A stretch of 63,984 nt of DNA, filler included, from Nemertoderma westbladi (GCA_032718475.1; 3 parts of 3 records of this genome joined end to end with filler, not necessarily neighbours in it); one strand, 5' to 3'. Positions 22,101 to 63,600 are shown, counted from the first letter of the whole stretch. Notes: generated by a model from the sequence alone, not told the origin. Translations and numbers: made by a program.

Positions 22101-22904
22101 TTCTGCCGCTGCCTTTGCTGCTTCTGCTTCTGCCGCCGTTACTGCTGCTGCCTTTCGGTCCTCTATCCGTTTTTTCTTTACTTGTTCTTCTTGGACTCTA
22201 ACGAGGCGGAGTTTTTCATCAAATTTAGCTTGGTTTGCAGCTAACATTTCCGCATCGATTGCGTCCAACACAAGCTTGGTTCCTTCACTATTAGGGCGAA
22301 GTCCAGACAGTCGTCTCCTCAACTCTTCGTCTCCTATGAATCGCTGATAGTCTGACAGATAGATGTCAATGGCGTCTCTAGTTCGCGGCTTCTCTGCTGC
22401 TGTTAATTCGCTTTCCACTTCGCTTTCCACTTCGCTTTCCACTTCGCTTTCCACCTCGCTTTCCACCTCGCTTTCCACCTCGCTTTCCACTTGAGAAGAA
22501 GTGGCGTCGGTTGATTCTTCATAGGTTGGCCGCTCATCATAAACCGTATCCGCCATCTTCGCTCCGCGTTCGGGCGTCCGCTCAACAGTATCCGAACTAC
22601 TGGAGCTATCGGGCCGCTGAGAACTAGGTTCTTGGCTAGGAGGTTGCTGCTGTTTTATAGCTTCTTCTTGATCCCGCTTGACTTGGGCCCGAGTGCCTAT
22701 GGCAGACCAACGGCGCTTCACTAACTTCGCAAATTGCGAAATCTTTTCTACCAACCTAGGTTCTGTCACAACCACTGCAGGGGTTGCCCTTCTTACAGTA
22801 TGAGGGGTTTCAGACCTCGGTCTGGGATTCTCTACACTTTGATCTGAGAAACAGGCTGTTGTTTCTAGGAGACTATCTGACAGAGTTTGCCTTGTGTCAG
22901 CCAT
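19123..22904 (-). CDS. BEL/Pao Gag-protease, with one frameshift near 22100
   Basis: DUF1759-like KFNGDEMKWLPF..EKLRFL; knuckles CALCDGPHRLSVC, CYNCLRQGHQRRTC, CAKCGAKHHILLH; protease ALLDSGSTGTFI; ILIGQN, RTRVGWYFTGP. Confidence 0.92.
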
Positions 22905-23974
22905 GTTTGATTGTACAGTTGAATGCCTACTGCTATATTACAGTTAAAGCAAGTCTAGTAATTCAGTATCACTGTTAGCCTCACAATTAATTACCGATAC
23001 TGCTACTCAGTGTAGCGTGATATATATAATATATTAGAATACCGGTATGCTTATAGTAGATACATAAGTATTATTACAGACTAGATTTGTCACAGAATAC
23101 AGGTATATAATTTTGGCACAAATATATATAAATATATAATAGGCCTATCGTGAATACCGGAATGCAGCTTACACTTATAGTATATAAGTATAATTCTGGA
23201 CTAGAATTAATTACAGAGTAACGGTATGATTTCAGCCTAAATTTATAGAATAAATATAATAAGCCTATTGTAAATACCGGTATGTCAATTATTTTAAAAT
23301 AATTGAATTTCTGAATGTTAGGGGTTACTTGGTTACTTTACTTACTTTATTACCGCTATTTAGTTGATTTTAGGGTAATTTTACAGGAAGTCTACAAACC
23401 AGCCTAACAAAGGGTTAGAATTCTGGTTATTACGACGGACAGGGTACTACGGTATTTGAAATAATAAGTAGTAGTAAATACACTGTGTTGTCCAGATAGG
23501 AAAATACCACCGCCTGACGACCTATAGCCGTATCGCTGTAGGTACTATGTTATGTATCACGGAGTGTTCCTACCTGGAAGTTAATTACCGCGGACTACCA
23601 GATCCAACGTGCCTATTAACCACTTTACAACACAAATATACTGCCTACACACTAATTACCTTTGGAAAGCAATGTACACTAAACCCTAAATTAGGTACAA
23701 ATACTGGTACAACAAATAATCAGTAGTTAAATATACTTGAACAGTTAAAATAACCACGGCATCTGCTGGAGTGACCGGTGCACAAAATCACCAGTCTTTA
23801 CCTACGCCAAGCAGTCCGTGTAGTACCGGGGTTAATTTAACTATAACGGTATGTGTAACAAACACAATTACTGTAGGAATAAACTTGGGGACATGAATGT
23901 TGCGAATAATCGCATAAACTCTGAATAATAAATATTACGCTACCCGTACAGAATACTCAAACAAAATACAAACC

Positions 23975-24432
23975 AAACGCTGGCAGACTACCACCAAGCC
24001 TAAATAAACTACAGTATGTGCAGATTCCAAAATGGTTAGTTAGTATGCGTTCTAACACGGTAGTACGACTTATTCTTTAAGAGGGGATTGACCTTACAGC
24101 TCTGGCTGCCCCAACTTACTAACTGGCACTTTATCAGACAAACTCTACACACGCAGCAATCTCTTCAGACCTAATAATAGCTAGACAACAATCCAGCCTA
24201 CAAAATATCTGAGTAATAACTATTACGGTACCTGAACAGACCACACAAACAAACACAGGCCAAAACGCTGGCAGAATACTGTCAAGCCTAAATAAACTAC
24301 AGTATGTGCAGATTCCAAAATGGTTAGTTAGTATGCGTTCTAACACGGTAGTACGACTTATTCTTTAAGAGGGGATTGACCTTACAGCTCTGGCTGCCCC
24401 AACTTACTAACTGGCACTTTATCGGACAGACT
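23975..24432. repeat. Direct duplication (~165 bp near-identical, period ~287 bp) in the BEL 5' UTR
   Basis: caagcctaaataaactacagtatgtgcag...ggcactttatc occurs at about 23995 and 24283. Confidence 0.9.
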
Positions 24433-24684
24433 CTACACACGCCGCAATTTCTCCAGACACAACAACAGTCCGACAACAGTCCGGCCTACAGTTATCTGAA
24501 CAATCTGAGCAGACTTACACGTCTTCAGCTCAATATTAACTTACTAGGAAATAAAACTGACAGAAATAGACCTAAGTAAAATCCCAATAAAAACCAGGCG
24601 TCCCCGATTTAATATCGAGACCTACCGGTATACAATAATCAAAATCTAATATTACGAATGTACTTATACTGGAAGTACCGGTTA

Positions 24685-27700: not shown

Positions 27701-27891
27701 TAACCAGTATTGGGTTAAATAAATGTGTATAGTAAAATAAAGGAAGAAAGACAATAAATCAATTATTGTTTTTACTTACATACCATGATGCATACTGTAT
27801 GTCATACACATAAATTACCATACATATATCCTACTACATAAATACAGTCTCACCACATCATTCATTACAACTATAAAGTATATAATCTTAC

Positions 27892-28250
27892 CTTTCGCAA
27901 GCTATTATTATACATAAACCAATATAAAACATCTGGATAATTCGGTCAAAGAATACGGATATCTTAAAATCTATTGAATCGTCTACAATGCAAAGTATTA
28001 CTCGGCGAATCAGATACAATATATATAGGTCTATGGGAGCACTGGATAAAAAAAATACTATTCCAGTAGACAACATTGCCATGATAAAGTAGTCGAAATG
28101 ACAGCGAGTGTGTTTACACAAGAAAATAACAAGAACCATGATATTAGCAAAGAGTCCCAGTAAAGTCATTGGAAAACCTATTAACATAACAACGTCAATG
28201 GTTAATAGGATGTAGTTAGTTTCGTTACAGAGACAGTCAACAACCTCCAT
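27892..28250 (-). CDS. Rhodopsin-like GPCR, exon 1 (N-terminus to TM3)
   Basis: MEVVDCLCNET (N-glycosylation sequon); TM1 LGLFANIMVLVIF; ends IIIACE-AG|gtaag in phase 2, matching exon 2; an alternative ATG lies at 28277. Confidence 0.8.
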
Positions 28251-28586
28251 TTTTTTACTAAATTGTTGTAAATACATGATTGCAAAGAAGCACTTCACAG
28301 TATGAGATTCCCAGTGAATTATCTAACAAAATGGACAAAGTGGGTGAGAATCCAGATATATTACACTGTAAATGTTTATGTAGTTTTATTCCAAAATTTA
28401 AAACGGTTGCACATTATTTGATATGTTTTATATATGAACAATTATATTATCAATTTAAAATATCTGAATATTATCTATAGAAACCTGTCTACTAATATTT
28501 CCGCTAAAAAGGATTTTACGCTATCGAATTTGCACCAACCCAGTGCCGGTACCCTTTCCATCAACTCAAACCCAGCTATTTGGTGT

Positions 28587-28696
28587 CGTCGCGTTACGGC
28601 TAATGTCGCGTTACGGCTAATTTTTTGAGAGATTAGCCGTAACGCGACTTTCAAAAGTGGCGGTACGGCTACTCTAAAAGTCGCGTTACGGCTAAT
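28587..28696. repeat. Cluster of direct and inverted gtcgcgttacggctaat motifs (probable DNA-transposon subterminal repeats)
   Basis: Three direct copies plus one inverted copy (attagccgtaacgcgac). Confidence 0.7.
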
Positions 28697-30303
28697 TGTC
28701 GCATATCCATGGTACCTATTGTAAAAAACAATTTAGGAGATATTACAGCTATTACTAATTATAGGGCCATCGCAATAGCGTCATTGTTACTTAAAGTATT
28801 TGAGTGGGTGCTGCTGATATCTGAGGGAGAAAAACTGGATTTAGACCACTTGCAGTTTGGTTTCCGTGAGAGATCGAGCACAGTAATGTGCTCGTGGACA
28901 GCAACGGAGGTCATTAATTACTATATGCGAAAGTCAACACCAGTCTATGGTTGCTTGTTGGACTTCACCAAAGCTTTTGATTTGGTTGAATGGAGAAAGC
29001 TTTTCCTTGAGCTGATCAAAAAAGGTTTTTCTCCCTTATATCTTAGGTGTTTGTTGTTTATTTATAGAACACAAATGTGTGCAGTGAGATGGAATAACGT
29101 TTTGTCATTTGATTTTTCTATTACTAATGGAGTTAGGCAAGGGTCGGTTATTTCACCGGTCCTGTTCTGTGTTGTTTTAAATGTGCTGATTTCACGGCTC
29201 AGACAGGCAAAAATAGGTTGTTATATTGGTGCTCAGTTTTATGGTTGTCCGTCCTTTGCGGACGATATGTTTCTATTGTGCCCGTCCGTAATTGGCCTAC
29301 AATACATGATTAATATTTGCAAAGATTTTTGTAAAGAGTATAAATTACAGATTAGTACTGATATTGATCCGAAAAAAAGTAAAACTAAATGTATCCCGTT
29401 CCAGAACACATGGAAGCCGCCTAGTGTGAATATTTCAGTAAATAACGTTACACTACCATGGGTTGAGAAAGGGCTACATTTAGGAATTCTGCTTAATTTT
29501 ACGTGTAGTGTCAATATAGATATACAGCGTAAGAGAGGTGCATTTATAGGAAAATTGGCAAATTTAAGGCAGGAATTTTCATTCGCTCACCCGCGGTGCT
29601 TGTCTAACATTCAACGTATTTATGCGACAAGTTTTTATGGAAGCCCAGTTTGGGATTTGGCTTCTGATGAATGCCGTAGAATATACACCGCTTGGAATAC
29701 GAATGTGCGCTACATTTATCATCTGCCGTATAACAGCCATAGGTTCATAGTAGAAGATATTGTTAATTTTCCCCACCCTAAGGTTATGCTCAGTAAACGT
29801 TTAGTTAAATTTGCAACTAGTGTTTTGACTTCTGATAAATTGTGTATAAGATTTCTGGCAAATTTAGTATTTTATGATTGTAGATGTAGAAGTGGTGCGA
29901 ACTTGCGTAACATAGGGAATGAGTGTGGTATAAATGATCTACGTAAAATATCAGTAGGTGACCTTTCTAATTTACGATATGTGCCTTCTCCACCTGATAG
30001 TTACTGGCGAGTTAAATTGTGTACAGAAATTATTGATTGCTATTTCGATGAGACTACAGTACCAGATTTCTCATCTGAAGAACTAATTGAAATTTTGAAA
30101 TATGTATCCTCGTTCTAGATATTTTCTAGTGTCTCAATACTTATTTGTGTTTTTCCTTGTTTTTTTTTTGTGCTACTTACATATTAGTTAATTACTTAAA
30201 TTTACTTTACATTACTACAATTTAGATTTACATTACATTACTGTGCGGTACTAATATATATATATGATATATTATGTATGAATATACAACATTAATTAAT
30301 TAA
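28697..30303 (+). mobile_element. 5'-truncated CR1/L2-group LINE with an uninterrupted RT ORF (28709-30118)
   Basis: NYRAIAI, QFGF, LDFTKAFD, GVRQGSVISP, FADD; (TAAT)n tail; 11-bp TSD ttacggctaat at 28686-28696 and 30304-30314. Confidence 0.9.
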
Positions 30304-31995: not shown

Positions 31996-32095
31996 NNNNN
32001 NNNNNNNNNNNNNNNNNNNNNNNNNNNNNNNNNNNNNNNTTAATTAATTAANNNNNNNNNNNNNNNNNNNNNNNNNNNNNNNNNNNNNNNNNNNN
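31996..32095. other. Assembly gap (Ns with a TTAATTAATTAA linker)
   Basis: 100-bp N block with a central linker; same format at 58052-58151. Confidence 0.97.
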
Positions 32096-32783
32096 ATACA
32101 GGAACCCAATGGTTGAGACTATACAGGAACCCAATGGTTGAGACTATACAGGAACCCAATGGTTGAGACTATACAGGAACCCAATGGTTGAGACTATACA
32201 GGAACCCAATGGTTGAGACTATACAGGAACCCAATGGTTGAGACTATACAGGAACCCAATGGTTGAGACTATACAGGAACCCAATGGTTGAGACTATACA
32301 GGAACCCAATGGTTGAGACTATACAGGAACCCAATGGTTGAGACTATACAGGAACCCAATGGTTGAGACTATACAGGAACCCAATGGTTGAGACTATACA
32401 GGAACCCAATGGTTGAGACTATACAGGAACCCAATGGTTGAGACTATACAGGAACCCAATGGTTGAGACTATACAGGAACCCAATGGTTGAGACTATACA
32501 GGAACCCAATGGTTGAGACTATACAGGAACCCAATGGTTGAGACTATACAGGAACCCAATGGTTGAGACTATACAGGAACCCAATGGTTGAGACTATACA
32601 GGAACCCAATGGTTGAGACTATACAGGAACCCAATGGTTGAGACTATACAGGAACCCAATGGTTGAGACTATACAGGAACCCAATGGTTGAGACTATACA
32701 GGAACCCAATGGTTGAGACTATACAGGAACCCAATGGTTGAGACTATACAGGAACCCAATGGTTGAGACTATACAGGAACCCA
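32096..32783. repeat. Perfect 25-bp tandem array (atacaggaacccaatggttgagact), about 27 copies, cut by the gap
   Basis: Identical units with no spacers. Confidence 0.97.
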
Positions 32784-33199
32784 CAATCGCAATATCATTT
32801 TGCGTCACTGATGTACAAAAATTTAAATTATTCAAAAAAATTACCCTTAAACACAAAAGGAAATAAATTGGCGGATACCAATGGGGCAGCTTCTCACTGG
32901 TACAGTAGAGTTATGGATCAAAGTTCACCAGAGTGAACCTGGGTTCAATAGTCGCCCATATTGTTAGCGATGGACCCCTCACAGAAAGGGTTATCAATCC
33001 TTTCCCATGTAGACTTGGGTGGTTAGACCTTGGAATTGTTGCTGAATGGGGGGAGCCGGAGCTTCATTACTGGACTCGGAGTCCGATACTGGTGACTCGT
33101 CGCCAGGATACGCTACCGACGGCTCCGTATTGCGTCGCTTTATATTGCATTTGCGTTTCTTCAACATAGTAGCCTAGGAAACAGAGTAAATAATTATAA

Positions 33200-35977: not shown

Positions 35978-36076
35978 TTGCAGCGCCGATCTCGTGACAA
36001 TCACCTGACCTGGGCTCTGGGTCCATGGCTCGCCATCGATTTGCACAGGCAGTTCACATTTCATTGTTATCCTTAC
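35978..36076 (-). CDS. DGKQ: Diacylglycerol kinase theta-like exon (accessory domain end)
   Basis: cag|VRITMKCELPVQIDGEPWTQSPGQVIVTRSALQ|gtaagt; 99 bp, phase 0-0. Confidence 0.92.
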
Positions 36077-36162
36077 CTGAGTAAACGAAATTAAATATTA
36101 TATTAAAAGTTAATTAAAACATTTAATATAATTAGTGCTGTTTATATAATAACATAGGATCC

Positions 36163-39100
36163 CTGGGCTTGGCCTATATTCACATTGCAACCCTGGTCTA
36201 TATACTCACATTACAACCCTGGCCTATCTACGCACACTGCAACCCTGGCCTATCTACTCACATTGCAACCCTGGACTATCTACTCACATTGCAACCCTGG
36301 TCTATCTACTCACATTGCAACCCTGGCCTATCTACTCACACTGTAACCCTGGACTATCTACTCACATTGCAACCCTGGTCTATCTACTCACACTGCAGCC
36401 CTGGACTATCTACTCACATTACAACCCTGGCCTATCTACTCACATTGCAACCCTGGTCTATATACTCACATTACAACCCTTGTCTATCTACTCACATTGC
36501 AACCCAGGCCTATCTACTCACATTGCAACCCTGGCATATCTACTCACACTGCATCCCTGGCTATCTACTCAGATTGCAACCCTGGCCTATCTACTCACAC
36601 TGCAACCCTGGCCTATCTACTCACATTGCAACCCTGGTTTATATACTCACATTGCAACCCTGGTCTATCTACTCACACTGCAACCCCCGCCTATCAACTC
36701 ACACTGCAACCCTGTATCTACTCACATTGCAACCCTGGCCTATCTACTCACACTGCAACCCTGGCTATCTACTCAGATTGCAACCCTGGCCTATCTACTC
36801 ACACTGCAACCCTGTATCTACTCAGATTGCAACCCTGGCCTATCTACTCACACTGCAACCCTGGCCTATCTACTCACATTACAACCCTGGTTTATATACT
36901 CACATTGCAACCCTGGTCTATCAACTCACACTGCAACCCCCGCCTATCAACTCACACTGCAACCCTGTATCTACTCACATTGCAACCCTGGCCTATCTAC
37001 TCACACTGCAACCCTGTATCTACTCAGATTGCAAACCTGGCCTATCTACTCACACTGCAACCCTGGCCTATCTACTCACATTACAACCCTGGTTTATATA
37101 CTCACATTGCAACCCTGGTCTATCAACTCACACTGCAACCCCCGCCTATCAACTCACACTGCAACAGCTGTATCTACTCACATTGCAACCCTGGCCTATC
37201 TACTCACACTGCAACCCTGGTCTATCTACTCACATTGCAACCCTGGTCTATCTACTCACATTGCAACCCTGGCCTATCTACTCACACTGCAACCCTGGTC
37301 TATCTACTCACATTGCAACCCTGGCCTATCTACTCACATTGCAACCCTGGTCTATCTACTCACATTGCAACCCTGGCCTATCTACTCACATTACAACCCT
37401 GGTTTATATACTCACATTGCAACCCTGGTCTATCAACTCACACTGCAACCCTGCTATCTACTCACATTGCAACCCTGGCCTATCTACTCACACTGCAACC
37501 CTGGTCTATCTACTCACATTGCAACCCTGGCCTATCTACTCACATTGCAACCCTGGTCTATCTACTCACATTGCAACCCTGGCCTATCTACTCACATTGC
37601 AACCCTGGTCCTATCTACTCACATTGCAACCCTGGTCTATCTACTCACATTGCAACCCTGGTCTATCTACTCACATTGCAACCCTGGCCTATCTACTCAC
37701 ATTGCAACCCTGGCCTATCTACTCACATTGCAACCCTGGCCTATCTACTCACATTGCAACCCTGGCCTATCTACTCACATTTCAACCCTGGCCTATCTAC
37801 TCACATTGCAACCCTGGTCTATCTACTCACATTGCAACCCTGGCCTATCTACTCACATTGCAACCCTGGTCTATCTACTCACATTACAACCCTGGTTTAT
37901 ATACTCACATTGCAACCCTGGTCTATCTACTCACATTGCAACCCTGGTCTATCTACTCACATTGCAACCCTGGTCTATCTACTCACATTGCAACCCTGGC
38001 CTATTTACTCACATTACAACCCTGGCTTATATACTCACATTGCAACCCTGGTCTATCTACTCACACTGCAACCCTGGTCTATCTACTCACATTGCAACCA
38101 TGGCCTATCTACTCACATTGCAACCCTGGTCTATCTACTCACATTGCAACCCTGGCCTATCTACTCACATTGCAACCCTGGTCTATCTACTCACATTGCA
38201 ACCCTGGTCTATCTACTCACATTGCAACCCTGGTCTATCTACTCACATTGCAACCCTGGCCTATCTACTCACATTACAACCCTGGTTTATATACTCACAT
38301 TGCAACCCTGGCCTATCTACTCACATTGCAACCCTGGCCTATCTACTCACATTGCAACCCTGGCCTATCTACTCACATTGCAACCCTGGTCTATCTACTC
38401 ACATTGCAACCCTGGCCTATCTACTCACATTGCAACCCTGGTCTATCTACTCACATTGCAACCCTGGTCTATCTACTCACATTGCAACCCTGGCCTATCT
38501 ACTCACATTGCAACCCTGGTTTATATACTCACATTGCAACCCTGGCTATCTACTCACATTGCAACCCTGGCCTATCTACTCACAGTGCAACCCTGGTCTA
38601 TCTACTCACATTGCAACCCTGGTCTATCTACTCACATTGCAACCCTGTATCTACTCACATTGCAACCCTGGTCTATCTACTCACATTGCAACCCTGGTCT
38701 ATCTACTCACATTGCAACCCTGGTCTATCTACTCACATTGCAACCCTGGTCTATCTACTCACATTGCAACCCTGGTCTATCTACTCACATTGCAACCCTG
38801 GCCTATCTACTCACATTGCAACCCTGGTCTATCTACTCACATTGCAACCCTGGCCTATCTACTCACATTGCAACCCTGGTCTATCTACTCACATTGCAAC
38901 CCTGGTCTATCTACTCACAGTGCAACCCTGGTATATCTACTCACATTGCAACCCTGGTCTATCTACTCACATTGCAACCCTGGTCTATCTACTCATATTG
39001 CAACCCTGGTCTATCTACTCACATTGCAACCCTGGTCTATCTACTCACATTGCAACCCTGGTCTATCTACTCACAGTGCAACCCTGGTATATCTACTCAC

Positions 39101-42100
39101 ATTGCAACCCTGGTATATCTACTCACATTGCAACCCTGGTCTATCTACTCACATTGCAACCCTGGTCTATCTACTCATATTGCAACCCTGGTCTATCTAC
39201 TCACATTGCAACCCTGGTCTATCTACTCACATTGCAACCCTGGTCTATCTACTCACATTGCAACCCTGGCCTATCTACTCACATTGCAACCCTGGTCTAT
39301 CTACTCACAGTGCAACCCTGGTATATCTACTCACATTGCAACCCTGGTCTATCTACTCACATTGCAACCCTGGTCTATCTACTCACAGTGCAACCCTGGT
39401 ATATCTACTCACATTGCAACCCTGGTATATCTACTCACATTGCAACCCTGGTCTATCTACTCACATTGCAACCCTGGCCTATCTACTCACATTGCAACCC
39501 TGGTCTATCTACTCACATTGCAACCCTGGCCTATCTACTCACATTGCAACCCTGGTCTATCTACTCACATTGCAACCCTGGTCTATCTACTCACAGTGCA
39601 ACCCTGGTATATCTACTCACATTGCAACCCTGGTCTATCTACTCACATTGCAACCCTGGTCTATCTACTCATATTGCAACCCTGGTCTATCTACTCACAT
39701 TGCAACCCTGGTCTATCTACTCACATTGCAACCCTGGTCTATCTACTCACAGTGCAACCCTGGTATATCTACTCACATTGCAACCCTGGTATATCTACTC
39801 ACATTGCAACCCTGGTCTATCAACTCACACTGCAACCCCCGCCTATCAAATCACACTGCAACCCTGTATCTACTCACATTGCAACCCTGGCCTATCTACT
39901 CACACTGCAACCCTGTATCTACTCAGATTGCAAACCTGGCCTATCTACTCACACTGCAACCCTGGCCTATCTACTCACATTACAACCCTGGTTTATATAC
40001 TCACATTGCAACCCTGGTCTATCAACTCACACTGCAACCCCCGCCTATCAACTCACACTGCAACAGCTGTATCTACTCACATTGCAACCCTGGCCTATCT
40101 ACTCACACTGCAACCCTGGTCTATCTACTCACATTGCAACCCTGGTCTATCTACTCACATTGCAACCCTGGCCTATCTACTCACACTGCAACCCTGGTCT
40201 ATCTACTCACATTGCAACCCTGGCCTATCTACTCACATTGCAACCCTGGTCTATCTACTCACATTGCAACCCTGGCCTATTTACTCACATTACAACCCTG
40301 GTTTATATACTCACATTGCAACCCTGGTCTATCAACTCACACTGCAACCCTGTATCTACTCACATTGCAACCCTGGCCTATTTAGTCACACTGCAACCCT
40401 GGTCTATCTACTCACATTGCAACCCTGGCCTATCTACTCACATTGCAACCCTGGTCTATCTCCTCACATTGCAACCCTGGCCTATCTACTCACATTGCAA
40501 CCCTGGTCTATCTATCTACTCACATTGCAACCCTGGTCTATCTACTCACATTGCAACCCTGGTCTATCTACTCACATTGCAACCCTGGCCTATTTACTCA
40601 CATTACAACCCTGGCCTATCTACTCACATTGCAACCCTGGCCTATCTACTCACATTGCAACCCTGGCCTATCTACTCACATTTCAACCCTGGCCTATCTA
40701 CTCACATTGCAACCTTGGTCTATCTACTCACATTGCAACCCTGGCCTATCTACTCACATTGCAACCCTGGTCTATCTACTCACATTACAACCCTGGTTTA
40801 TATACTCACATTGCAACCCTGGTCTATCTACTCACATTGCAACCCTGGTCTATCTACTCACATTGCAACCCTGGTCTATCTACTCACATTGCAACCCTGG
40901 CCTATTTACTCACATTACAACCCTGGCTTATATACTCACATTGCAACCCTGGTCTATCTACTCACACTGCAACCCTGGTCTATCTACTCACATTGCAACC
41001 ATGGCCTATCTACTCACATTGCAACCCTGGTCTATCTACTCACATTGCAACCCTGGCCTATCTACTCACATTGCAACCCTGGTCTATCTACTCACATTGC
41101 AGCCCTGGTCTATCTACTCACATTGCAACCCTGGTCTATCTACTCACATTGAAACCCTGGCCTATTTACTCACATTACAACCCTGGTTTATATACTCACA
41201 TTGCAACCCTGGCCTATCTACTCACATTGCAACCCTGGCCTATCTACTCACATTTCAACCCTGGCCTATCTACTCACATTGCAACCCTGGTCTATCTACT
41301 CACATTGCAACCCTGGCCTATCTACTCACATTGCAACCCTGGTCTATCTATTCACATTGCAACCCTGGTCTATCTACTCACATTGCAACCCTGGCCTATT
41401 TACTCACATTACAACCCTGGTTTATATACTCACATTGCAACCCTGTATCTACTCACATTGCAACCCTGGCCTATCTACTCACAGTGCAACCCTGGTCTAT
41501 CTATTCACATTGCAACCCTGGTCTATCTACTCACATTGCAACCCTGTATCTACTCACATTGCAACCCTGGTCTATCTACTCACATTGCAACCCTGGTCTA
41601 TCTACTCACATTGCAACCCTGATCTATCTACTCACATTGCAACCCTGGTCTATCTACTCACATTGCAACCCTGGTCTATCTACTCACATTGCAACCCTGG
41701 CCTATCTACTCACATTGCAACCCTGGTCTATCTACTCACATTGCAACCCTGGCCTATCTACTCACATTGCAACCCTGGTCTATCTACTCACATTGCAACC
41801 CTGGTCTATCTACTCACAGTGCAACCCTGGTATATCTACTCACATTGCAACCCTGGTCTATCTACTCACATTGCAACCCTGGTCTATCTACTCATATTGC
41901 AACCCTGGTCTATCTACTCACATTGCAACCCTGGTCTATCTACTCACATTGCAACCCTGGTCTATCTACTCACAGTGCAACCCTGGTATATCTACTCACA
42001 TTGCAACCCTGGTATATCTACTCACATTGCAACCCTGGTCTATCTACTCACATTGCAACCCTGGTCTATCTACTCATATTGCAACCCTGGTCTATCTACT

Positions 42101-45100
42101 CACATTGCAACCCTGGTCTATCTACTCACATTGCAACCCTGGTCTATCTACTCACATTGCAACCCTGGCCTATCTACTCACATTGCAACCCTGGTCTATC
42201 TACTCACAGTGCAACCCTGGTATATCTACTCACATTGCAACCCTGGTCTATCTACTCACATTGCAACCCTGGTCTATCTACTCACAGTGCAACCCTGGTA
42301 TATCTACTCACATTGCAACCCTGGTATATCTACTCACATTGCAACCCTGGTCTATCTACTCACATTGCAACCCTGGCCTATCTACTCACATTGCAACCCT
42401 GGTCTATCTACTCACATTGCAACCCTGGCCTATCTACTCACATTGCAACCCTGGTCTATCTACTCACATTGCAACCCTGGTCTATCTACTCACAGTGCAA
42501 CCCTGGTATATCTACTCACATTGCAACCCTGGTCTATCTACTCACATTGCAACCCTGGTCTATCTACTCATATTGCAACCCTGGTCTATCTACTCACATT
42601 GCAACCCTGGTCTATCTACTCACATTGCAACCCTGGTCTATCTACTCACAGTGCAACCCTGGTATATCTACTCACATTGCAACCCTGGTATATCTACTCA
42701 CATTGCAACCCTGGTCTATCTACTCACATTGCAACCCTGGTCTATCTACTCATATTGCAACCCTGGTCTATCTACTCACATTGCAACCCTGGTCTATCTA
42801 CTCACATTGCAACCCTGGTCTATCTACTCACATTGCAACCCTGGCCTATCTACTCACATTGCAACCCTGGTCTATCTACTCACAGTGCAACCCTGGTATA
42901 TCTACTCACATTGCAACCCTGGTCTATCTACTCACATTGCAACCCTGGTCTATCTACTCACAGTGCAACCCTGGTATATCTACTCACATTGCAACCCTGG
43001 TATATCTACTCACATTGCAACCCTGGTCTATCTACTCACATTGCAACCCTGGTCTATCTACTCATATTGCAACCCTGGTCTATCTACTCACATTGCAACC
43101 CTGGTCTATCTACTCACATTGCAACCCTGGTCTATCTACTCACATTGCAACCCTGGCCTATCTACTCACATTGCAACCCTGGTCTATCTACTCACAGTGC
43201 AACCCTGGTATATCTACTCACATTGCAACCCTGGTCTATCTACTCACATTGCAACCCTGGTCTATCTATACTCACATTGCAACCCTGGTCTATCTACTCA
43301 CATTGCAACCCTGGCCTATCTACTCACATTGCAACCCTGGTCTATCTACTCACATTGCAACCCTGGCCTATCTACTCACATTGCAACCCTGGTCTATCTA
43401 CTCACATTGCAATCCTGGCCTATTTACTCACATTACAACCCTGGTTTATATACTCACATTGCAACCCTGGCCTATCTACTCACATTGCAACCCTGGTCTA
43501 TCTACTCACATTGCAACCCTGGTCTATCTACTCACATTGCAACCCTGGTCTATCTACTCACATTGCAACCCTGGTCTATCTACTCACATTGCAACCCTGG
43601 TCTATCTACTCACATTGCAGCCCTGTATCTACTCACATTGCAACCCTGGTCTATCTACTCACATTGCAACCCTGGTCTATCTACTCACATTGCAACCCTG
43701 GTCTATCTACTCACATTGCAACCCTGGTCTATCTACTCACATTGCAGCCCTGTATCTACTCACATTGCAACCCTGGTCTATCTACTCACATTGCAACCCT
43801 GGTCTATCTACTCACATTGCAACCCTGGTCTATCTACTCACATTGAAACCCTGGCCTATCTACTCACATTGCAACCCTGGCCTATCTACTCACATTGCAA
43901 CCCTGGTCTATCTACTCACATTGCAACCCTGGTCTATCTACTCACATTGCAACCCTGGTCTATCTACTCACATTGCAACCCTGGTCTATCTACTCACATT
44001 GCAACCCTGGTCTATCTACTCACATTGCAGCCCTGTATCTACTCACATTGCAACCCTGGTCTATCTACTCACATTGCAACCCTGGTCTATCTACTCACAT
44101 TGCAACCCTGATCTATCTACTCATATTGCAACCCTGGTCTATCTACTCACATTGCAACCCTGGTCTATCTACTCACATTGCAACCCTGGTCTATCTACTC
44201 ACATTGCAACCCTGGTCTATCTACTCACATTGCAACCCTGGTCTATCTACTCACATTGCAGCCCTGTATCTACTCACATTGCAACCCTGGTCTATCTACT
44301 CACATTGCAACCCTGGTCTATCTACTCACATTGCAACCCTGGTCTATCTACTCACATTGAAACCCTGGCCTATCTACTCACATTGCAACCCTGGCCTATC
44401 TACTCACATTGCAACCCTGGTCTATCTACTCACATTGCAACCATGGCCTATCTATACTCACATTGCAACCCTGGCCTATTTACTCACATTACAACCCTGG
44501 TTTATATACTCACATTGCAACCCTGGTCTATCAACTCACACTGCATCCCTGTATCTACTCACATTGCAACCCTGGTCTATCAACTCACACTGCAACCCTG
44601 TATCTACTCACATTGCAACCCTGGCCTATCTACTCACAGTGCAACCCTGGCCTATCAACTCACACTGCAACACTGGCCTATCTACTCACAGTGCAACCCT
44701 GGTATATCTACTCACATTGCAACCCTGGCCTATCTACTCACATTGCAACCCTGGCCTATCTACTCACATTGCAACCCTGGCCTATTTACTCACAGTGCAA
44801 CCCTGGTCTATCAACTCACATTGCAACCATGGTCTATCAACTCACACTGCAACCCTGGTCTATCTACTCACATTGCAACCCTGGCCTATCTACTCACACT
44901 GCAACCCTGGTCTATATACTCACATTGCAACCCTGGTCTATCAACTCACACTGCAACCCTGGCCTATCTACACACAGTGCAACCCTGGTCTATCAACTCA
45001 CATTGCAACCCTTGTCTATCAACTCACACTGCAACCCTGGTCTATCTACTCACATTGCAACCCTGGCCTATCTACTCACACTGCAACCCTGGCCTATCTA

Positions 45101-47842
45101 CTCACACTGCAACCCTGGTCTATCTACTCGCATTGCAACCCTGGTCTATCTACTCACATTGCAACCCTGTATCTACTCACATTGCAACCCTGGTCTATCT
45201 ACTCACATTGCAACCCTGGTCTATCTACTCACATTGCAACCCTGGCCTATCAACTCACACTGCAACCCTGTATCTACTCACATTGCAACCCAGGTTTATC
45301 TACTCGCATTGCAACCTTGGCCTATCTACTCACATTGCGACCCTGGTCTATCTACTCACATTGCAACCCTGGTCTATCTACTCACATTGCAACCCTAGCC
45401 TATCTACTCACACTGCAACCCTGTATCTACTCACATTGCAACCCTGGCCTATCTACTTACACTGCAACCCTGGTCTATCTACTCACAGTGCAACCCTGGT
45501 CTATCTACTCACATTGCAACCCTTCTCTATCTACTCACACTGCAACCCTGTATCTACTCACATTGCAACCCTGGTCTATCTACTCACAGTGCAACCCTGG
45601 TCTATCTACTCACATTGCAACCCTTCTCTATCTACTCACACTGCAACCCTGTATCTACTCACATTGCAACCCTGGCCTATCTACTCACAGTGCAACCCTG
45701 GTTTATCTACTCACACTGCAACCCTGGCCTATCTACTCACATTGCAACCCTGGCCTATCTACTCACATTGCAACCCTGGCCTATCATACTCACAGTGCAA
45801 CCCTGGTCTATCTACTCACATTGCAACCCTTCTCTATCTACTCACACTGCAATCCTGTATCTACTCACATTGCAACCCTGGCCTATCTACTCACAGTGCA
45901 ACCCTGGTTTATCTACTCACACTGCAACCCTGGCCTATCTACTCACATTGCAACCCTGGCCTATCTACTCACATTGCAACCCTGGCCTATCATACTCACA
46001 GTGCAACCCCGGTCTAGCTCTCACATTGCAACCCTGGCCTATCTACTCACAGTGCAACCCTGGTTTATCTACTCACACTGCAACCCTGGCCTATCTACTC
46101 ACATTGCAACCCTGGTCTATCTACTCACACTGCAACCCTGGCCTATCAACTCACATTGCAACCCTGGCCTATCATACTCACAGTGCAACCCTGGTCTATC
46201 TACTCACATTGCAACCCTTCTCTATCTACTCACACTGCAACCCTGTATCTACTCACATTGCAACCCTGGCCTATCTACTCACAGTGCAACCCTGGTTTAT
46301 CTACTCACACTGCAACCCTGGCCTATCTACTCACATTGCAACCCTGGCCTATCTACTCACATTGAAAACCCTGGCCTATCATACTCACAGTGCAACCCCG
46401 GTCTAGCTCTCACATTGCAACCCTGGCCCATCTACTCACAGTGCAACCCTGGTTTATCTACTCACACTGCAACCTTGGCCTATCTACTCACATTACAACC
46501 CTGGCCTATCTACTCACACTGCAACCCTGGTCTATCTACTCACATTGCAACCCTGGCCTATCTACTCACATTGCAACCCTGGTCTATCTACTCACACTGC
46601 AACCCTGGTCTATCTACTCACATTGCAACCCTAGCCTATCTACTCACACTGCAACCTTGTATCTACTCACATTGCAACCCTAGCCTATCTACTCACACTG
46701 CAACCCTGGCCTATCTACTCACACTGCAACCCTGTATCTACTCACATTGCAACCCTGGCCTATCTACTTACACTGCAACCCTGGTCTATCTACTCACAGT
46801 GCAACCCTGGTCTATCTACTCACATTGCAACCCTTCTCTATCTACTCACACTGCAACCCTGTATCTACTCACATTGCAACCCTGGTCTATCTACTCACAG
46901 TGCAACCCTGGTCTATCTACTCACATTGCAACCCTTCTCTATCTACTCACACTGCAACCCTGTATCTACTCACATTGCAACCCTGGCCTATCTACTCACA
47001 GTGCAACCCTGGTTTATCTACTCACACTGCAACCCTGGCCTATCTACTCACATTGCAAACCTGGCCTATCTACTCACAGTGCAACCCTGGCCTATCATAC
47101 TCACAGTGCAACCCTGGTCTATCTACTCACATTGCAACCCTTCTCTATCTACTCACACTGCAACCCTGTATCTACTCACATTGCAACCCTGGCCTATCTA
47201 CTCACATTGCAACCCTGGCCTATCTACTCACATTGCAACCCTGGCCTATTTACTCACATTGCAACCCTGGCCTATCATACTCACAGTGCAACCCCGGTCT
47301 AGCTCTCACATTGCAACCCTGGCCTATCTACTCACAGTGCAACCCTGGTTTATCTACTCACACTGCAACCCTGGCCTATCTACTCACATTGCAACCCTGG
47401 CCTATCTACTCACAGTGCAACCCTGGCCTATCATACTCACAGTGCAACCCTGGTCTATCTACTCACATTGCAACCCTTCTCTATCTACTCACACTGCAAC
47501 CCTGGCCTATCATACTCACAGTGCAACCCTGGTCTCTATCTACTCACACTGCAACCCTGGTCTATCAACTCACACTGCAACCCTGTATCTACTCACATTG
47601 CAACCCTGGCCTATCTACTCACATTGCAACCCTGGCCTATCTACTCACATTGCAACCCTGGCCTATTTACTCACATTGCAACCCTGGCCTATCATACTCA
47701 CAGTGCAACCCCGGTCTAGCTCTCACATTGCAACCCTGGCCTATCTACTCACACTGCAACCCTGGACTATCTACTCACATTGCAACCCTGGCCTATCTGC
47801 TCTATTATAACCCTGGACTATCTACTCACATTACAACCCTGG
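36163..47842. repeat. 11.7-kb minisatellite, 26-bp unit (~450 copies), filling a DGK intron
   Basis: Plus-strand unit ctcacattgcaaccctgg(t/c)ctatcta; on the minus strand CCAGGGTTGCAAT|GTGAGTAGATAGR, which is the exon end plus splice donor. Confidence 0.98.
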
Positions 47843-48057
47843 GCGATACGTATTCCGCTACGCAACCCGCTCTGAATCTGCCCCATATGAACGACTCCGT
47901 TAACACCAACTACCTCCAGGTAGCTGTCCCCGTGGGATGGTTTCCGAAACTTATCGTCTTTGTCGGTACCCCAGAGATCCGCACCAGATCCCCAGGATCC
48001 AATGTTGAGAATGATTAATCCCTCGATAGCCGGCATGTTGATAATGTTGTGGTCCAC
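47830..48057 (-). CDS. DGKQ: DGK theta-like exon (accessory domain)
   Basis: tag|VDHNIINMPAIEGLIILNIGSWGSGADLWG..LEVVGVNGVVHMGQIQSGLRSGIRIAQGCN|gtgagt; 228 bp. Confidence 0.93.
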
Positions 48058-48288
48058 CTAAAAATAACCAAAATAAATTTAAGGGGACGCCGTTAAAAAT
48101 CCATGCATTTATTTCACAATATGTTGCCAAAGGTGAATTTATCTCGAGATTGGATATTTGATTTTCAAATATTTGCCGTGAATGTCGCTGTGATTGTCTT
48201 TATGCGTTGAAGCAAAAAAAAGTTTTAACAATTACCAAAATTATAATAATATTTAGAAAAAAGCAGTTAATATAAAATCAAATCTAAC

Positions 48289-48382
48289 CTCTAATATAAT
48301 ATCGCGATGTAGATCCTTACAGGAACTCTGCTTATACATTTTCTTCATTCCTAACCGAAAGTAAACTCCTTTGTTATGTAAC
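48289..48382 (-). CDS. DGKQ: DGK theta-like exon
   Basis: tag|(R)LHNKGVYFRLGMKKMYKQSSCKDLHRDIILE|gttag; phases match the neighbouring exons. Confidence 0.9.
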
Positions 48383-48624
48383 CTAAAAATATACACAACG
48401 GTGCTATAAAATGAATGGAAAGTGCACCAATATCTGATCGGAACAAAGTCCCAGGATAACTATAACATATATATTTTAATTGCGACTTCGTCAACATGTT
48501 TCCAAATTGCAAAAATATAGATTCCCTGAGACCTTTAGTTTATCTTTATATGGTCAAAAATGGCGGTTTTTAAATGTTCGCTAGATGTACACTTTGTTAA
48601 ATTGTAAATCTTTGAGGGCTTTGT

Positions 48625-48860
48625 GGGGCGAGCGACGAAAGTAAGCGAGCTTAGCATACAAGTACCACTAACTCAATCGGTGTGTCTGTTGATCTGTTGT
48701 TCTGTCGTGTTCAATTTTAAACGTTAATAACTCAGCCAAATCTCGATGAAATCTATCCAAACTTGGTACATTATGTAGTCTAGCAAAAGTTTAGAAATTT
48801 TCCAGTTTAGAAATTTTCCAATTCCAATTTGAATTTGTGTGTGGCCTTCGAGAAGCTAAG
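48625..48860 (+). mobile_element. DINE/HINE-like repeat, second copy
   Basis: Motifs shared with 27330-27700. Confidence 0.45.
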
Positions 48861-49756
48861 ATAATAGCAGTCAATTAATTTAATTAAAATTAATTAAGTA
48901 GGTTGGGGTAAAAACAGCATTTTCAACATGATTTTAATGGAAATTAATTATTTTATAGTAAAAGATATAAATAATTATACTTAAAAATTATACAGCTGTA
49001 ATCCCCATACCCCATTCCATTATAGATTTTAATTAGTTCTTAAGTGACTTGCTTTAAGAAATGTGTCTTTAATTGATCTAAACGTAATTAAGTTAAAATG
49101 CATTCCATCACTCTCTACTTCCAGCTCCATCATTCCTTGGCATTTTTGATATTGCCTATTAGATGGGAACCAGTCCAATCATCTCCCCACTCAGCTTGTT
49201 TTATCTTGCAAAATGATTGGCTGAATTGAATCGTGATTCTTTAGAATATTTAGCTAAATAATTTCGTTGAGGTGTTGACATGATAAATTAATATTTCAGT
49301 ATCAATACTCGGCATAAGGTAAGTTGTAATATTTCTTAAAAATTGGGTTGCCTCCACACCTAAAATAATATATTACTTTTAAAACACAAATTTCCTGTTA
49401 ATACCTCTGCCTTTCATTAATCCTCTGTGCTCCTTCGGGTTGGGGTGGTGCAGATTAAGAGGGCGGTTGAAGCGAGGGAGGGAACTTTCCTCTCTTCTTT
49501 GATTTATTCTTATTGGCGGTTTGGTTAAATTTCTTATTTATTTATTTAAATTTCTTAAGTACCGATTTTGGGATAGAATTGCTCAATTTTAATCTGTATC
49601 TGATAACTGAGCCTCGTCCTGAGCGATGGCCCCACGAACGTGTACTGAGCTTATACGTACAGCTTTGCCGTCCCGGCGCCCAAGCTCGAACGGCTCCCAA
49701 CCCCATCCCCAACCCACCCCCCCCCCCCCCACCCCAATAATAACTATCATTCAGAC

Positions 49757-49966
49757 CTGCTGTTGAATTTCTCCGGTTTTTCTTCGCGTTTTAGATGGAA
49801 ACCGAGGCTGATATCCGCATCTATCCCGATCCCGAAGTAGTTGTTCATAACGAGAACATTTGGTATGTCTTCGTTGGTGAGAGACCCGCTGCGAGGGTTC
49901 GCTAAAGCTTTACGGTCCGCCTCGATTTGCAGTTGTTTCTCATCTTGTTGGAAAATTATAGTCCAT
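49757..49966 (-). CDS. DGKQ: DGK theta-like exon
   Basis: (R)[38 protein letters not shown](R); 210 bp, phase 2-2. Confidence 0.93.
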
Positions 49967-50106
49967 CTAAATAGAAGTAAAGAATATTGAGTCTCTCAAA
50001 CTGGTCCATTGCTTGTTGATAAGTAATTTATAATTATTTTTAGGTGACCTCTAGTATTGAATCCGATGTTGATGTTGTTGATAATTTCCAGTTAGATTTT
50101 AATAAA

Positions 50107-50375
50107 TGGCGAAGTTGGTAGAGCGCGAGCGTGGGACTTGGAATCTCTAGGTACCGAGTTCAATCCCCCCTTTCCGGTGAATTTTTTGTAGTAAGATTAG
50201 TAGTAAGCCATTCCAGGAGACAGTTCATCCGTTAGTAGACGCGGCCCTTTGCGCGATTTCGCGCTTGTCTGGTTTGTTCTGGGATGGACCCGTCGCTTGG
50301 CATTGTGGCTAAATCCTTTGTCTTTGAATTCTCACCTCTCCGGAGTTCGTGAGTTCGAATCCGGGAGGGGGCCAG
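50107..50375 (+). repeat. Two degenerate tRNA-derived (A/B box) modules, SINE-like, in an intron
   Basis: tggcgaagttggtagagcg...gagttcaatccc and tggcattgtggctaa...gagttcgaatcc; no full cloverleaf. Confidence 0.5.
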
Positions 50376-50429
50376 GAGGTACTTTTCCATTTTGACAATA
50401 ATTATGTAATCTAAGTTTTCCGCACTAAC

Positions 50430-50687
50430 CTATCTAACTGAGTCTCCTCGGATTTATCGGTCGCTTTGAGTATTTTATATACGTCGTCGCCCTCGCTCCA
50501 TCCTCCACCCCATCTGAGGACGCGGGATAGATCGTTACCCGTTCCCAACGGAAGCACTGCTATCGGGGGAGACACGCAGACAGACTCCTGGCCCACGTCG
50601 TCCAGACAACTCAGTACCCACCCCACAGTACCATCCCCACCGCACACCAGGATCCGGTACTTGGGAACCTTACGGAAGGTATATAAA
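50430..50687 (-). CDS. DGKQ: DGK theta-like exon (catalytic domain, ATP-binding GGDGT)
   Basis: [44 protein letters not shown](R); 258 bp. Confidence 0.95.
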
Positions 50688-50791
50688 CTGCGGGGAAGGA
50701 AATAAAATAAATGTAAATATAGTAAGTGTAAATGTTAGCCATTCTTGTTAGGATTAAAAAAATAAAATAAAAAATAATTGAATGCACATAC

Positions 50792-50943
50792 CCAGGGATG
50801 GGCCCTCCATTATCCAGATCGAAGACCTGATTTGTGTTGAGAAGTCGTCGGAACTGAGTGATAAGGTCGAGGCCCTGGCAGCCACCAGAGCGAACATTTA
50901 CGAACACTAACAGAGGAACATTGTTGGGTGGCAGCAATTCAGT
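50792..50943 (-). CDS. DGKQ: DGK theta-like exon (start of catalytic domain)
   Basis: [41 protein letters not shown](G)|gtatgt. Confidence 0.95.
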
Positions 50944-51371
50944 CTAACAAATAATAATAACAGTTCAATTAATTCGTTGTTTGTTGTGGTTTATTAGCAA
51001 ATATCATATTATTTACTAAAACACTTCAAACATAATTTTGTATGTTGTATTTTTTAATGTTAATGGGCACAAATAGCACCGATTCCAATTGAACGAGTGT
51101 CCAATAGTACCATTTACACATGGCCTTCAGAAAGACAGCAGGGTCCTAATTGCACAGACTAAAGCAAAGGATATGATCCCTTGCTTGCAAAACTCTGCCA
51201 TACGGCAGACTTTGCAATGTGTATGGTTTATATTACATCCACTATCCAGTTGGATATATAAACCATACGAATGTCAATAGCATAGGTTACAGATAAATAT
51301 TAAAAGCCTTAAAAAATATTACACAACGAAATGCAAACATGATAGCAGTATAAAAAAAATTGTTATAACTT

Positions 51372-57002: not shown

Positions 57003-57258
57003 AGGGGGGTGGGGTGGGGTGGGGTGGGGTGGGGTGGGGTGGGGTGGGGTGGGGTGGGGTGGGGTGGGGTGGGGTGGGGTGGGGTGGGGTGGGGGTGGGG
57101 TGGGGTGGGGTGGGGTGGGGTGGGGTGGGGTGGGGTGGGGTGGGGTGGGGTGGGGTGGGGTGGGGTGGGGTGGGGTGGGGTGGGGTGGGGTGGGGGTGGG
57201 GTGGGGTGGGGTGGGGTGGGGTGGGGGTGGGGTGGGGTGGGGTGGGGTGGGGTGGGGT
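57003..57258 (+). repeat. (GGGGT)n microsatellite, about 50 copies, with G-quadruplex potential
   Basis: Read directly from the sequence. Confidence 0.97.
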
Positions 57259-57673
57259 GAGGTGGATCGATTACTCCGGTATTCTCATTAACTCTAGCGT
57301 GGACGCGGTAGGGTTGACAATGTTATTTTGGCCTTAACTGTGCAGCAATGTGGACCATCTCTCTTTACACACACCCATCCAATAGCATTGTCACTGCACG
57401 ATGTTCCGCCAGATCTACAATGTCCCAGAATATAGTGTCGTAATCCAATGACACGACCCCCCCCCCCCCCCCCCCCGCCCCCCCACAAAAAAAAACATTT
57501 TATTTTGCTACAAATCAATTGGAAACAGATAGTTTCACCTCCCTCCTCCTTGCTGGGTGAGCCAGAATTTGTATTTTCGCTTTCATTCTTTAGCTACAAG
57601 CGTTTAAAAAAGGTGTCTCCGTCGTTATTTCACAGGTCACAGAGCAATCATTCTTCAACCTTGTAGAAAGCTG

Positions 57674-58051: not shown

Positions 58052-58151
58052 NNNNNNNNNNNNNNNNNNNNNNNNNNNNNNNNNNNNNNNNNNNNTTAAT
58101 TAATTAANNNNNNNNNNNNNNNNNNNNNNNNNNNNNNNNNNNNNNNNNNNN
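58052..58151. other. Assembly gap
   Basis: N block with a TTAATTAATTAA linker. Confidence 0.97.
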
Positions 58152-60608: not shown

Positions 60609-63600
60609 CCCTATTAGTACTGGGCTATAAAATGCTGTACAAATACAAGGGAGGGGGGGGGGGGGGGGGGGGGTGGTGTATTGACCCTTCCCTCTAAAAT
60701 CTACAAATATTAACGAAAACGTCTGATTTTTTGTTTGTACGTAGGTATCACCAGTCTGGATCCGACCGAAAAAATGTACTGGGGTGGTAATATTGCAGCA
60801 CCAACATTACAAGTAATGCACAATTTTCACAAAATTTGAAAGTTACATTTATCGGCTAATTGTTTCTCAATACAGGTTTTCTGGGGCGCAAAATACATTG
60901 GAAAATATTTAAAAATGATATGATTACCATAAATGGCTGTTTAGTCCTCTATGCGTAGGAAAAAAATGAAAAAAACAAGTAACCAGCACTTTTCAGTTAG
61001 AACACAAAATTTTTAATTCACTTATACGATGTTATAAATTCACATTTTCAGGTTTTCTAGGGCGCTGATTCTAATGGAATACATTTCAAATATGCCAGAT
61101 CATTGCTACTAGTATTTTTCGGCGTAATTTGGCAAATTTTGGTGCTAGCACTAAATTTCGTACCCATCACCAAAAATTACAAGTTTGCGATGTAGAAGTA
61201 GTAGTAGTACTACTACTACTAGGATCGGCATGCTGCATTGCAGCTGCATTTTTAAGAATGCTGTGCCGGCTTATCGACAAAATTGCACCGCCACAACTCC
61301 CTATCACCCATGAGATTTGATAGATCATCCGCATCTTCAAGGCCAGTGTCCTTTAAGATGCGTCTCAAGAAAGTCATGGGCTCTCACCATGCTTATTCAC
61401 TCCATGAGGCTGCCAAAGTACAAGATTATGCACTGGCTGGTCCTCACGGCGAAAGCAATGTCCTGCAAAGCGGAGGCGAGTTTGTTCTAGTGTCAAGCTT
61501 GGGGGAACCAATGAGACACCTCCAATGTTATATAGTGTCTGGTTGGAGATGTGTGCATTGAACTTGACACAATGAACCCGGCGTAGCATTCTTGTGAATG
61601 TGCCGTCCAGAGATTTGGTGTCCTCAGCAGTTAGAGCCCAGCATGGATTCCCATAGAGGAGTACTGGAACTACTGCTGCTCTAAATAACCGGACCTTAAG
61701 TTTCCGATTAATTCTCGGTGACTTCCAAATCCTGGAAAGCCTATTCAAGGCTGCCCATGCCTATCCCTTACGTATTCGAAGGTCCTCACCTGACTTCCGG
61801 ATCCATGATCCCAGGTAACAGAAGTCATCCACTTACTCAAGCATACCATCTTTTGAGCTTATGCTCATCCGATCAGAGACTTGCTGAGGACTTTCAAAGT
61901 TAACTGTCAAAACTTTGGTCTTTCTGGAGTTAATAAAAAGACCAACACTAGAAGCAGCATGTTCTAATGAGCTGAGGAGCCGTTGGGCTCCCTCTAGTGA
62001 TTCTGAGAGTACTCCTAAGTCATCAGCAAAGTCTAGATCAGTTAGGTACTTGGCAGGATTTCCTCGACTTCTGGAGCCAGTAGGTGGAGTTATCATCACC
62101 CCATCATCATTATGATGATCTAAGGACATGCGTAGAACATAGTCAACAACAATTATGAACAAGAATGGTGCAAGTGTGTCTCCCTGGAGGACGCCCCATA
62201 ACACTTCAAATGGTTCTGTGTCACCGTCAACAGTAGACACAATGTTGTCGAACCATCGTATACTGATCTGATTGCTGCAATAATTTCATCAGGAATCCCA
62301 TATAATGAAAGTATGCTGAACATACGTGAGCGAGAGACTGAATCAAAGGCCTTGAAGAAGTCAACAAAGATAACAGCCAGATGCCTGTCTTTCTTTTTTG
62401 ATAACTCTTCAATTATCCTTCTAAGTGCCAAAATGGGCTCCATGGTCCCACGACCTTTACGGAACCCATTCTGATTTCCACGGAGCAGTCTCTCAATGGG
62501 ATCCCTGATGCGATTTAATAGAATTCTATTGTATAGCTTTGCAGCAATCGAGATCAATGAGATTCCCCGAAAAGAACCATACAGTGTTAGGTTGCCGTTC
62601 TTGGGAACTGGCACCAACTTATTTGTTTTCATTTCTGGTGGGACTCTTGTTGTACGGTACATGTCTACTATGATGGGATAGATGAGCTACTAGTATTTTT
62701 CGGCGTAATTTGGCAAAATTTCGTACCCATCACCAAAAAGTACAAGTTTGCGATAGTAGTAGTAGTACAAGTTTGCGATGATCAGTGCTGTTTTTATTGA
62801 TTTCATCGGATGAAGGACCCTCATAAACCCGTATAACGCAAGAAACAAGATGATACTATCTACTGATCAATTTACTCATTTTCCAAAATTTGGTGCAAAA
62901 CAACAATTTTCACCCACCGGCGAAAAATACAAGTTTGAAAACTCTTATGAAATTTTTACTGATTCCATTGAATTCAGAACCCCAACAAACCCGTATAACG
63001 CAAAAAACAAGATGACACAATCAATTGATATATTTGATGGTTTTCAAAATTTGGTGCTAGCACCAAATTTTGCACCCACTTCCGAAAAATACAAGTTTGT
63101 GATGTCTAGTTCGATAATTATATATTTCATTTAATTCAGAACAGCCATAAACCTCTAAAATGCAAGAAATAAATTGTCACAAGCAATGAATGGATTTTCA
63201 AAAATTTCGTGCTAGCACCAAAATTTGCACACAGTCTCACCGAAAAATACAAGTTTGATACGCTTGGTGCAATTCGTATATATTTCATCGAAACCAGAAC
63301 CCCAAAAAACCCCAATTGCTTAAAAAACAAGTTTCAAACAATCAATTTACAAAATTGACATATTTCAAAATTTGGTGCTGGCACCAAAATTTGGCACCCG
63401 CCGAAAAAAACAAGTTTGAAATTTCTAAATCAATTTATATGAATTTCATCCAATTGCTAACACCAAAAAACCGGTGTAAATCAAAAATAGAGATGTTACA
63501 ATTAATATTTAATGAAATGTAATTTTCAAAAAACGTCTCAAAAAAAGTGCCAAAAGTAGGGTTAAAAAATGGTGCTATAACTCGAAAACTACCCAATATT

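Follow-up and report, generated by a model that had tools for sequence, protein, structure and literature searches.

We examined a window of 63,984 nucleotides (nt) of DNA from Nemertoderma westbladi (GCA_032718475.1), by which we mean the whole stretch analysed, including the filler between its three joined parts. Its minus strand carries part of a gene for diacylglycerol kinase theta (DGK-theta), one intron of which consists almost entirely of tandem copies of its own 5' splice junction. On homology, the identity of the gene is clear from its database matches, its accessory domain and its collinear exons. The exon preceding the repeat (47830-48057) matches the Pfam family DAGK_acc (PF00609) over positions 66-140 of 158 (E 5e-20), and is further backed by homologues and an RNA-derived contig. 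Among the 120 listed homologues, all informative names are DGK or DGK-theta, with identities of 64-73%, and tblastn with 10 of them places eight collinear exons between ~53000 and 33100. The N-terminal C1 and RA domains of DGK-theta were not found within the window.

Upstream of the accessory exon, four catalytic and accessory exons (50792-50943, 50430-50687, 49757-49966 and 48289-48382) are joined by the same contig. Downstream of the repeat come a 99-nt exon (35978-36076), which codes VRITMKCELPVQIDGEPWTQSPGQVIVTRSALQ, and the last exon (32797-33173), with coding sequence to ~32994 and a lower end set by the length of the RNA-derived contig. The conserved DGEPW motif of the 99-nt exon stands 15 residues after the AQG of the preceding exon in 112 of the 120 listed homologues; of the other eight, seven break two residues past AQG, exactly at the junction of the repeat-bearing intron, and one breaks later. 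Two database models of DGK-theta, from a bivalve and a spider (P0066 and P0105), lack precisely this 33-residue exon, which may be an annotation error or a genuine skipped form.

The host intron (36077-47829, minus strand) has 11,753 nt and phase 0, with its donor GT at 47829-47828 and its acceptor AG ending at 36077; the remaining introns of the gene measure 104-2,804 nt. Tandem Repeats Finder reports a tandem array at 36180-47842 with a period of 26 and 451.7 copies. Wrap-around alignment, which extends the array to 36172, gives 454 segments, that is 452 units once the end pieces of one and eight letters are set aside, with a mean identity of 96% to the consensus and with higher-order blocks. 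Each unit consists of the last 13 nt of the exon followed by the first 13 nt of the intron, so that the junction on the minus strand reads ...IAQGCN|VRITMKCELPVQIDGEPW. Unit 1 (47842-47817) itself spans the boundary, carrying the authentic donor AAT|GTGAGT, and its exon end is the one backed by the RNA-derived contig. Only 95 nt at the 3' end of the intron (36077-36171) are free of the repeat, an AT-rich remnant that includes the acceptor. The array contains no N, and the long open reading frames across its plus strand are a by-product of a stop-free unit. The original prediction of some 450 tandem copies of a half-exonic, half-intronic unit, with about 90 bp of non-repeat sequence in an 11.75-kb intron, is therefore borne out by the counts.

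The donor sequence is thus reiterated head to tail throughout the intron. Counting the true donor, GT is kept in 435 of the 452 units, GTGAGT in 421, and the 9-mer identical to the authentic donor in 315. Unit 2 (47816-47792), the nearest competitor, has lost its GT on the allele of the window. All 11 downstream donors tested read V-S-R-stop, the stop being an in-frame TAG (47818-47820 in unit 1) at the fourth codon past the donor, as had been predicted; it would terminate products of downstream donors as well as those retaining the intron. The donor had also been described as a strong partner of U1. It does pair with U1 (seven Watson-Crick pairs and one G-U pair, with T at position -1), but its strength is ordinary for this gene, where five other donors pair at 6+3, 7+2, 8, 7 and 8 positions (a simple count against a U1 consensus, leaving aside the donor of the intron at 52795).

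The intron position is old, because two other animals carry an intron at the same codon, and the intron predates its repeat. In the relatives, where the original prediction had proposed looking, the intron occurs at the same codon and in the same phase (AQGGH|GT) in all five related metagenome loci, which represent two distinct sequences; it measures only 59 and 61 nt, and one of the two has the same GTGAGT donor, again with T at -1. Before its expansion the intron probably measured about 108 nt (13 + 95), which would make the growth roughly 100-fold, in agreement with the expansion originally proposed.

Conserved coding sequence (AQG in the homologues) makes up the first 13 nt of the unit, and because of this the unit can be traced to the DGK exon, as the idea of a local amplification of the intron's own donor junction had it. 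Elsewhere in the window no match to the unit exceeds 10 nt. The exact 25-nt unit has no match in the metagenome contigs either, a weak negative, as the organism may lie outside that collection. Just beyond the last unit, the non-repeat remnant begins with 8 nt that match the exon side, which would suit an array that started at short direct repeats, a recognised starting point of tandem duplication. Two other origins were considered and rejected: insertion of a foreign satellite, given the conserved coding sequence in the first half of the unit, and gain of a new intron by tandem duplication (the Rogers or mirage model), given that the orthologues already have the intron and that the acceptor lies in non-repeat sequence.

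Within the array, exact duplications of 1098 nt (at a shift of 2899) and 726 nt are found. Uniformity among the units is highest in the middle and declines toward the ends, and a variant at unit position 26, seen in unit 1, is confined to units 1, 3, 443, 445 and 448. Conservation is no higher in the donor core, with 2.0 substitution alleles per position versus 1.45 in the remainder of the unit.

Of the six runs listed, among which no sample is represented by both DNA and RNA, four (X1-X4), all available as contigs, were compared with the region 47740-51000; X1 comes from sample S1, X2 and X3 from S2, and X4 from S3. Exon SNPs stand at 48040, 48046, 50621 and 50821. No run is recorded as RNA and X4 is listed as 'DNA?', but X4 was recognised as RNA-derived because of four CT..AC joints and empty intron bins: it yields a single contig of 3,572 nt (depth 174.2) from which four introns with CT..AC ends have been removed, leaving the four corresponding intron bins empty. 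This contig leaves the window at 47828. That is the departure expected if the first donor is joined to the exon at 36076, which opens with GT and hence shares two letters with the intron; joining to the last exon would move the departure to 47829, while use of a downstream donor would extend the match through unit 1. The contig continues for another 474 letters, a length that matches the 99-nt exon together with 377 nt from the last exon, whose end would then lie at 32797, just ahead of another repeat. (That repeat, at 32096-32783, has 27.5 copies of a 25-nt unit that are 100% identical, begins just beyond the deduced 3' end of the DGK transcript and runs into an assembly gap.) The spliced contig also explains all X4 depth over copies 1-4 (33.6 = 21/109 x 174.2), and X4 contains no repeat contig derived from the intron.

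Splicing at the first donor is thus shown in one RNA-derived contig of another individual. The authentic donor dominates in the sole RNA-derived run, although this count is of contigs from a different animal, in which minor isoforms would escape notice. Of the junction that the original prediction proposed to map, the joint between the first donor and 36076 fits the contig, within the limits of contigs from one run. The accompanying picture of hundreds of donors competing in the pre-mRNA is not supported, as splicing in the only RNA-derived contig is at the first donor, which also dominates in several human and amphioxus genes with this arrangement.

The DNA-derived runs bear on the length of the array. 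Across three unique contigs X1 is identical to the window; since X1 may be the source of the window, it lends the sequence no independent support. Its depth is informative all the same: summed over copies 1-4 it reaches 881-1424 times single copy, against 1134 times in a k-mer graph simulation with one 452-unit allele. With unit 443 repeating unit 1, the same graph places the end of the unique contig at 47813, which is where the X1 contig ends. For the sample matching the window, depth is consistent with the assembled length. In S2, on the other hand, the depth ratio is only 50-79 (X3) or 15-41 (X2), corresponding by simulation to ~20-65 units in all, and its contig continues past 47813 and diverges from the window within unit 2. 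The X1/X3 depth ratio is 9.8 for the array versus 0.39-0.86 in four control bins of dispersed repeats. Summed contig depth is a rough measure in which library bias may enter; its simplest reading is an approximately tenfold difference in copy number between individuals, detected indirectly.

Taken together, these observations make it fairly probable that the array is a tolerated, unstable, donor-spanning minisatellite of an old DGK-theta intron, which is spliced at its first donor and removed whole. The array would have begun by local duplication of the exon-intron junction at short direct repeats flanking a proto-unit. Slippage and unequal exchange likely account for its growth and its changes in length, with block duplication contributing and leaving the edges out of homogenisation. 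The first donor would be chosen by exon definition or by 5'-to-3' scanning, as measured for the 37-bp variable number tandem repeat (VNTR) in intron 7 of F7, where only the most upstream functional donor is picked (Borensztajn et al. 2006, PMC1557585). Rare products of downstream donors would be cleared through the stop four codons in. The array is likely tolerated because first-donor splicing removes it whole, and it may have no selected function.

Several points weigh against this account. The RNA of X4 stems from S3, another individual, and RNA of the 452-unit allele was not seen. Contigs drop minor isoforms, and degradation may remove those bearing the stop. On its acceptor side the junction is deduced from the 2-nt overlap and the remaining length of the contig, whose loose end was absent from the 24 of 1151 loose-end rows listed. 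The search for the unit covered the window and the metagenome contigs, so that copies may occur at other genomic loci. The conservation comparison of the donor core is of low power (P 0.12 for a more variable core), and selection against the closest competing donor could be the cause of the GT loss in unit 2. Finally, by analogy, a repeat of like size in ABCA7 lowers expression and raises skipping of the next exon.

This last precedent leads to an alternative in which the first donor is likewise used, but long alleles would lower DGK-theta expression, or promote skipping or re-splicing of the 99-nt exon to give an in-frame protein without PVQIDGEPW. In human ABCA7, a VNTR in intron 18 with a donor-bearing 25-nt unit varies from 12 to ~427 units (298-10,678 bp), and long alleles reduce expression and increase skipping of exon 19, the next exon, 3.2- to 4.1-fold (De Roeck et al. 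2018, PMC5954066; PMC6660495). The intron analysed here has similarly grown from ~0.1 kb to 11.75 kb. Skipping would be in frame (QGCN|ATMLKK) and would remove DGEPW, and the same exon is absent from P0066 and P0105. Moreover, the exon opens with GTAAGG (36076-36071; acceptor CAG|GTAAGG), where the orthologues have ATT, so that ligation recreates a donor-like site, AAT|GTAAGG, pairing with the U1 consensus at eight positions; if used for re-splicing, that site would remove the 99-nt exon without shifting the frame. Against this, the 2-nt overlap indicates that the exon is present in the X4 contig, the two database models may be annotation errors, and the effect in ABCA7 has been attributed to factor-binding motifs within the ABCA7 unit. 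We consider this alternative unlikely. Its stronger form, in which array length would be a heritable dial on DGK-theta, with alleles from tens to 452 units changing the loss of the DGEPW exon by skipping or re-splicing, is an analogy that we find rather doubtful. If true, it would yield an in-frame, probably inactive kinase, and would extend the ABCA7 type of repeat effect beyond humans, here with a re-splicing site already built in.

The copy-number rheostat of the original prediction worked differently, through downstream donors competing with the first, so that copy number would set the share of stop-bearing transcripts bound for nonsense-mediated decay (NMD). The 315 identical 9-mers and the uniform V-S-R-stop would provide the means, the 6-16 and CBS genes do use their two nearest extra donors (cited in PMC1557585), and NMD could hide such products. 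However, the RNA-derived contig shows the first donor alone, F7 picks only its most upstream functional donor, and in ABCA7 retention of one unit (2 +/- 1%) and the effect of NMD are unchanged with length (PMC5954066). Since the precedents only ever use the nearest copies, 450 copies would act like three. A rheostat based on extra donors is thus very unlikely; what may survive of the idea is the effect suggested by ABCA7, in which expression would fall or the next exon would be skipped.

It is equally hard to believe that the array, though real, was inflated in length by the assembler. Such an error would be in keeping with the exact duplications (1098 and 726 nt) inside the array, with a fragmented assembly whose gaps lie 4 kb and 10 kb away, and with the fact that no read or contig spans the array. 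Yet the X1 depth agrees with the simulated 452-unit allele and the X1 contig ends where the repetition of unit 1 in unit 443 predicts. The possibility of an artefact, raised at the outset, is in this way made improbable by DNA depth. The two gaps are 100 bases each (31996-32095 and 58052-58151), consist of 44 N, TTAATTAATTAA and 44 N, and are likely scaffolding spacers; the array lies within the 26-kb piece between them.

That the array serves as a sponge for the U1 small nuclear ribonucleoprotein, or as a ladder for stepwise (recursive) splicing, is extremely improbable despite its 421 GTGAGT sites per pre-mRNA, and X4 has no intron-derived repeat contig to suggest either. A mammalian cell holds about a million U1 particles, a pool against which a few nascent transcripts are small, and our literature search turned up no report of repeats serving as a U1 sponge. 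A recursive-splicing ratchet point joins a pyrimidine tract and AG to a following donor. Acceptors inside the array were rejected on this basis: purines make up 64% of its sense strand, the 1250 YAG sites in it have at most eight pyrimidines in the upstream 17 nt (11-15 at the real acceptors of the gene), and AG|GTRAG sites number zero. Recursive splicing within the array is consequently unsupported.

The window contains further elements. Frames for a long interspersed nuclear element (LINE) endonuclease and reverse transcriptase (PF03372, PF00078; 54176-56502, minus strand) lie upstream of the last DGK exon found, probably inside a DGK intron, and adjoin a (GGGGT)51 repeat at 57006-57265. High-copy dispersed repeats occupy DGK introns at 48612-49700 and 50127-50270, with summed depth up to tens of thousands times single copy; the loose ends at 50127 look tRNA-like, suggesting a short interspersed nuclear element. 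A 1024-aa frame with DUF1759 (19123-22937, minus strand) is presumably a Pao/BEL-like gag. There are also a reverse-transcriptase frame (28643-30118, plus strand), a broken retroelement-like run of frames (4224-7134, plus strand), and hydrophobic frames at 12208-12855 (minus strand) and 27888-28322 (plus strand) that by eye resemble pieces of seven-transmembrane receptors. Additional tandem arrays stand at 2956-3462 (68 nt x 7.5), 23920-24504 (288 nt x 2) and 62825-63472 (162 nt x 4), and the genome is rich in minisatellites.

We return to the account preferred above, that of a tolerated minisatellite spliced at its first donor. If it is correct, selection of the first donor probably withstands the presence of hundreds of identical ones, and repeated copying of its own junction can enlarge a 0.1-kb intron 100-fold. 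Alleles of both kinds, long and short, apparently coexist, which offers a natural test of donor scanning at 450 copies and of the generality of ABCA7-type skipping. A literature search found no paper on a DGK minisatellite, but similar arrays are known.

In ABCA7, as in the DGK array, the unit carries a donor GT, a retained unit brings a premature stop and the next exon can be skipped in frame. The ABCA7 unit, however, starts at the donor GT without an exonic part, whereas half of the DGK unit is exonic, and the longest ABCA7 allele enlarges its intron eightfold compared with ~100-fold here. Effects of length on expression and skipping were measured for ABCA7, while the DGK array is known from sequence and contigs.

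F7 likewise has a first unit that spans the exon-intron boundary and an exactly reiterated donor, and the same holds for the minisatellites of CBS intron 13, 6-16 intron 2, lamin B2 and PDGF (cited in PMC1557585). In F7, lamin B2 and PDGF the first donor is used, and in 6-16 and CBS the first and the two nearest. Those arrays have 5-26 copies and belong to mammalian genes; the DGK array has 452, in an animal with AT-rich introns. The amphioxus 'mirage' minisatellites of Adh3, the globins BflGb6 and BflGb9, troponin C and PGBD5 are likewise tandem duplications of exon-intron boundaries, unstable in length, that leave regular splicing undisturbed (PMC3087553, PMC3902484). Their edges escape homogenisation, a pattern matched by the edge variant of the DGK array. 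Mirages, on the other hand, comprise 2-7 units of 60-160 bp (10-72 bp in Adh3) in the cases cited, rather than 452 of 26 nt, and were proposed as a source of new introns, whereas the DGK intron predates its repeat. The DGK array is therefore a donor-reiterating minisatellite, a member of a class already in print, at the top of its known size range.

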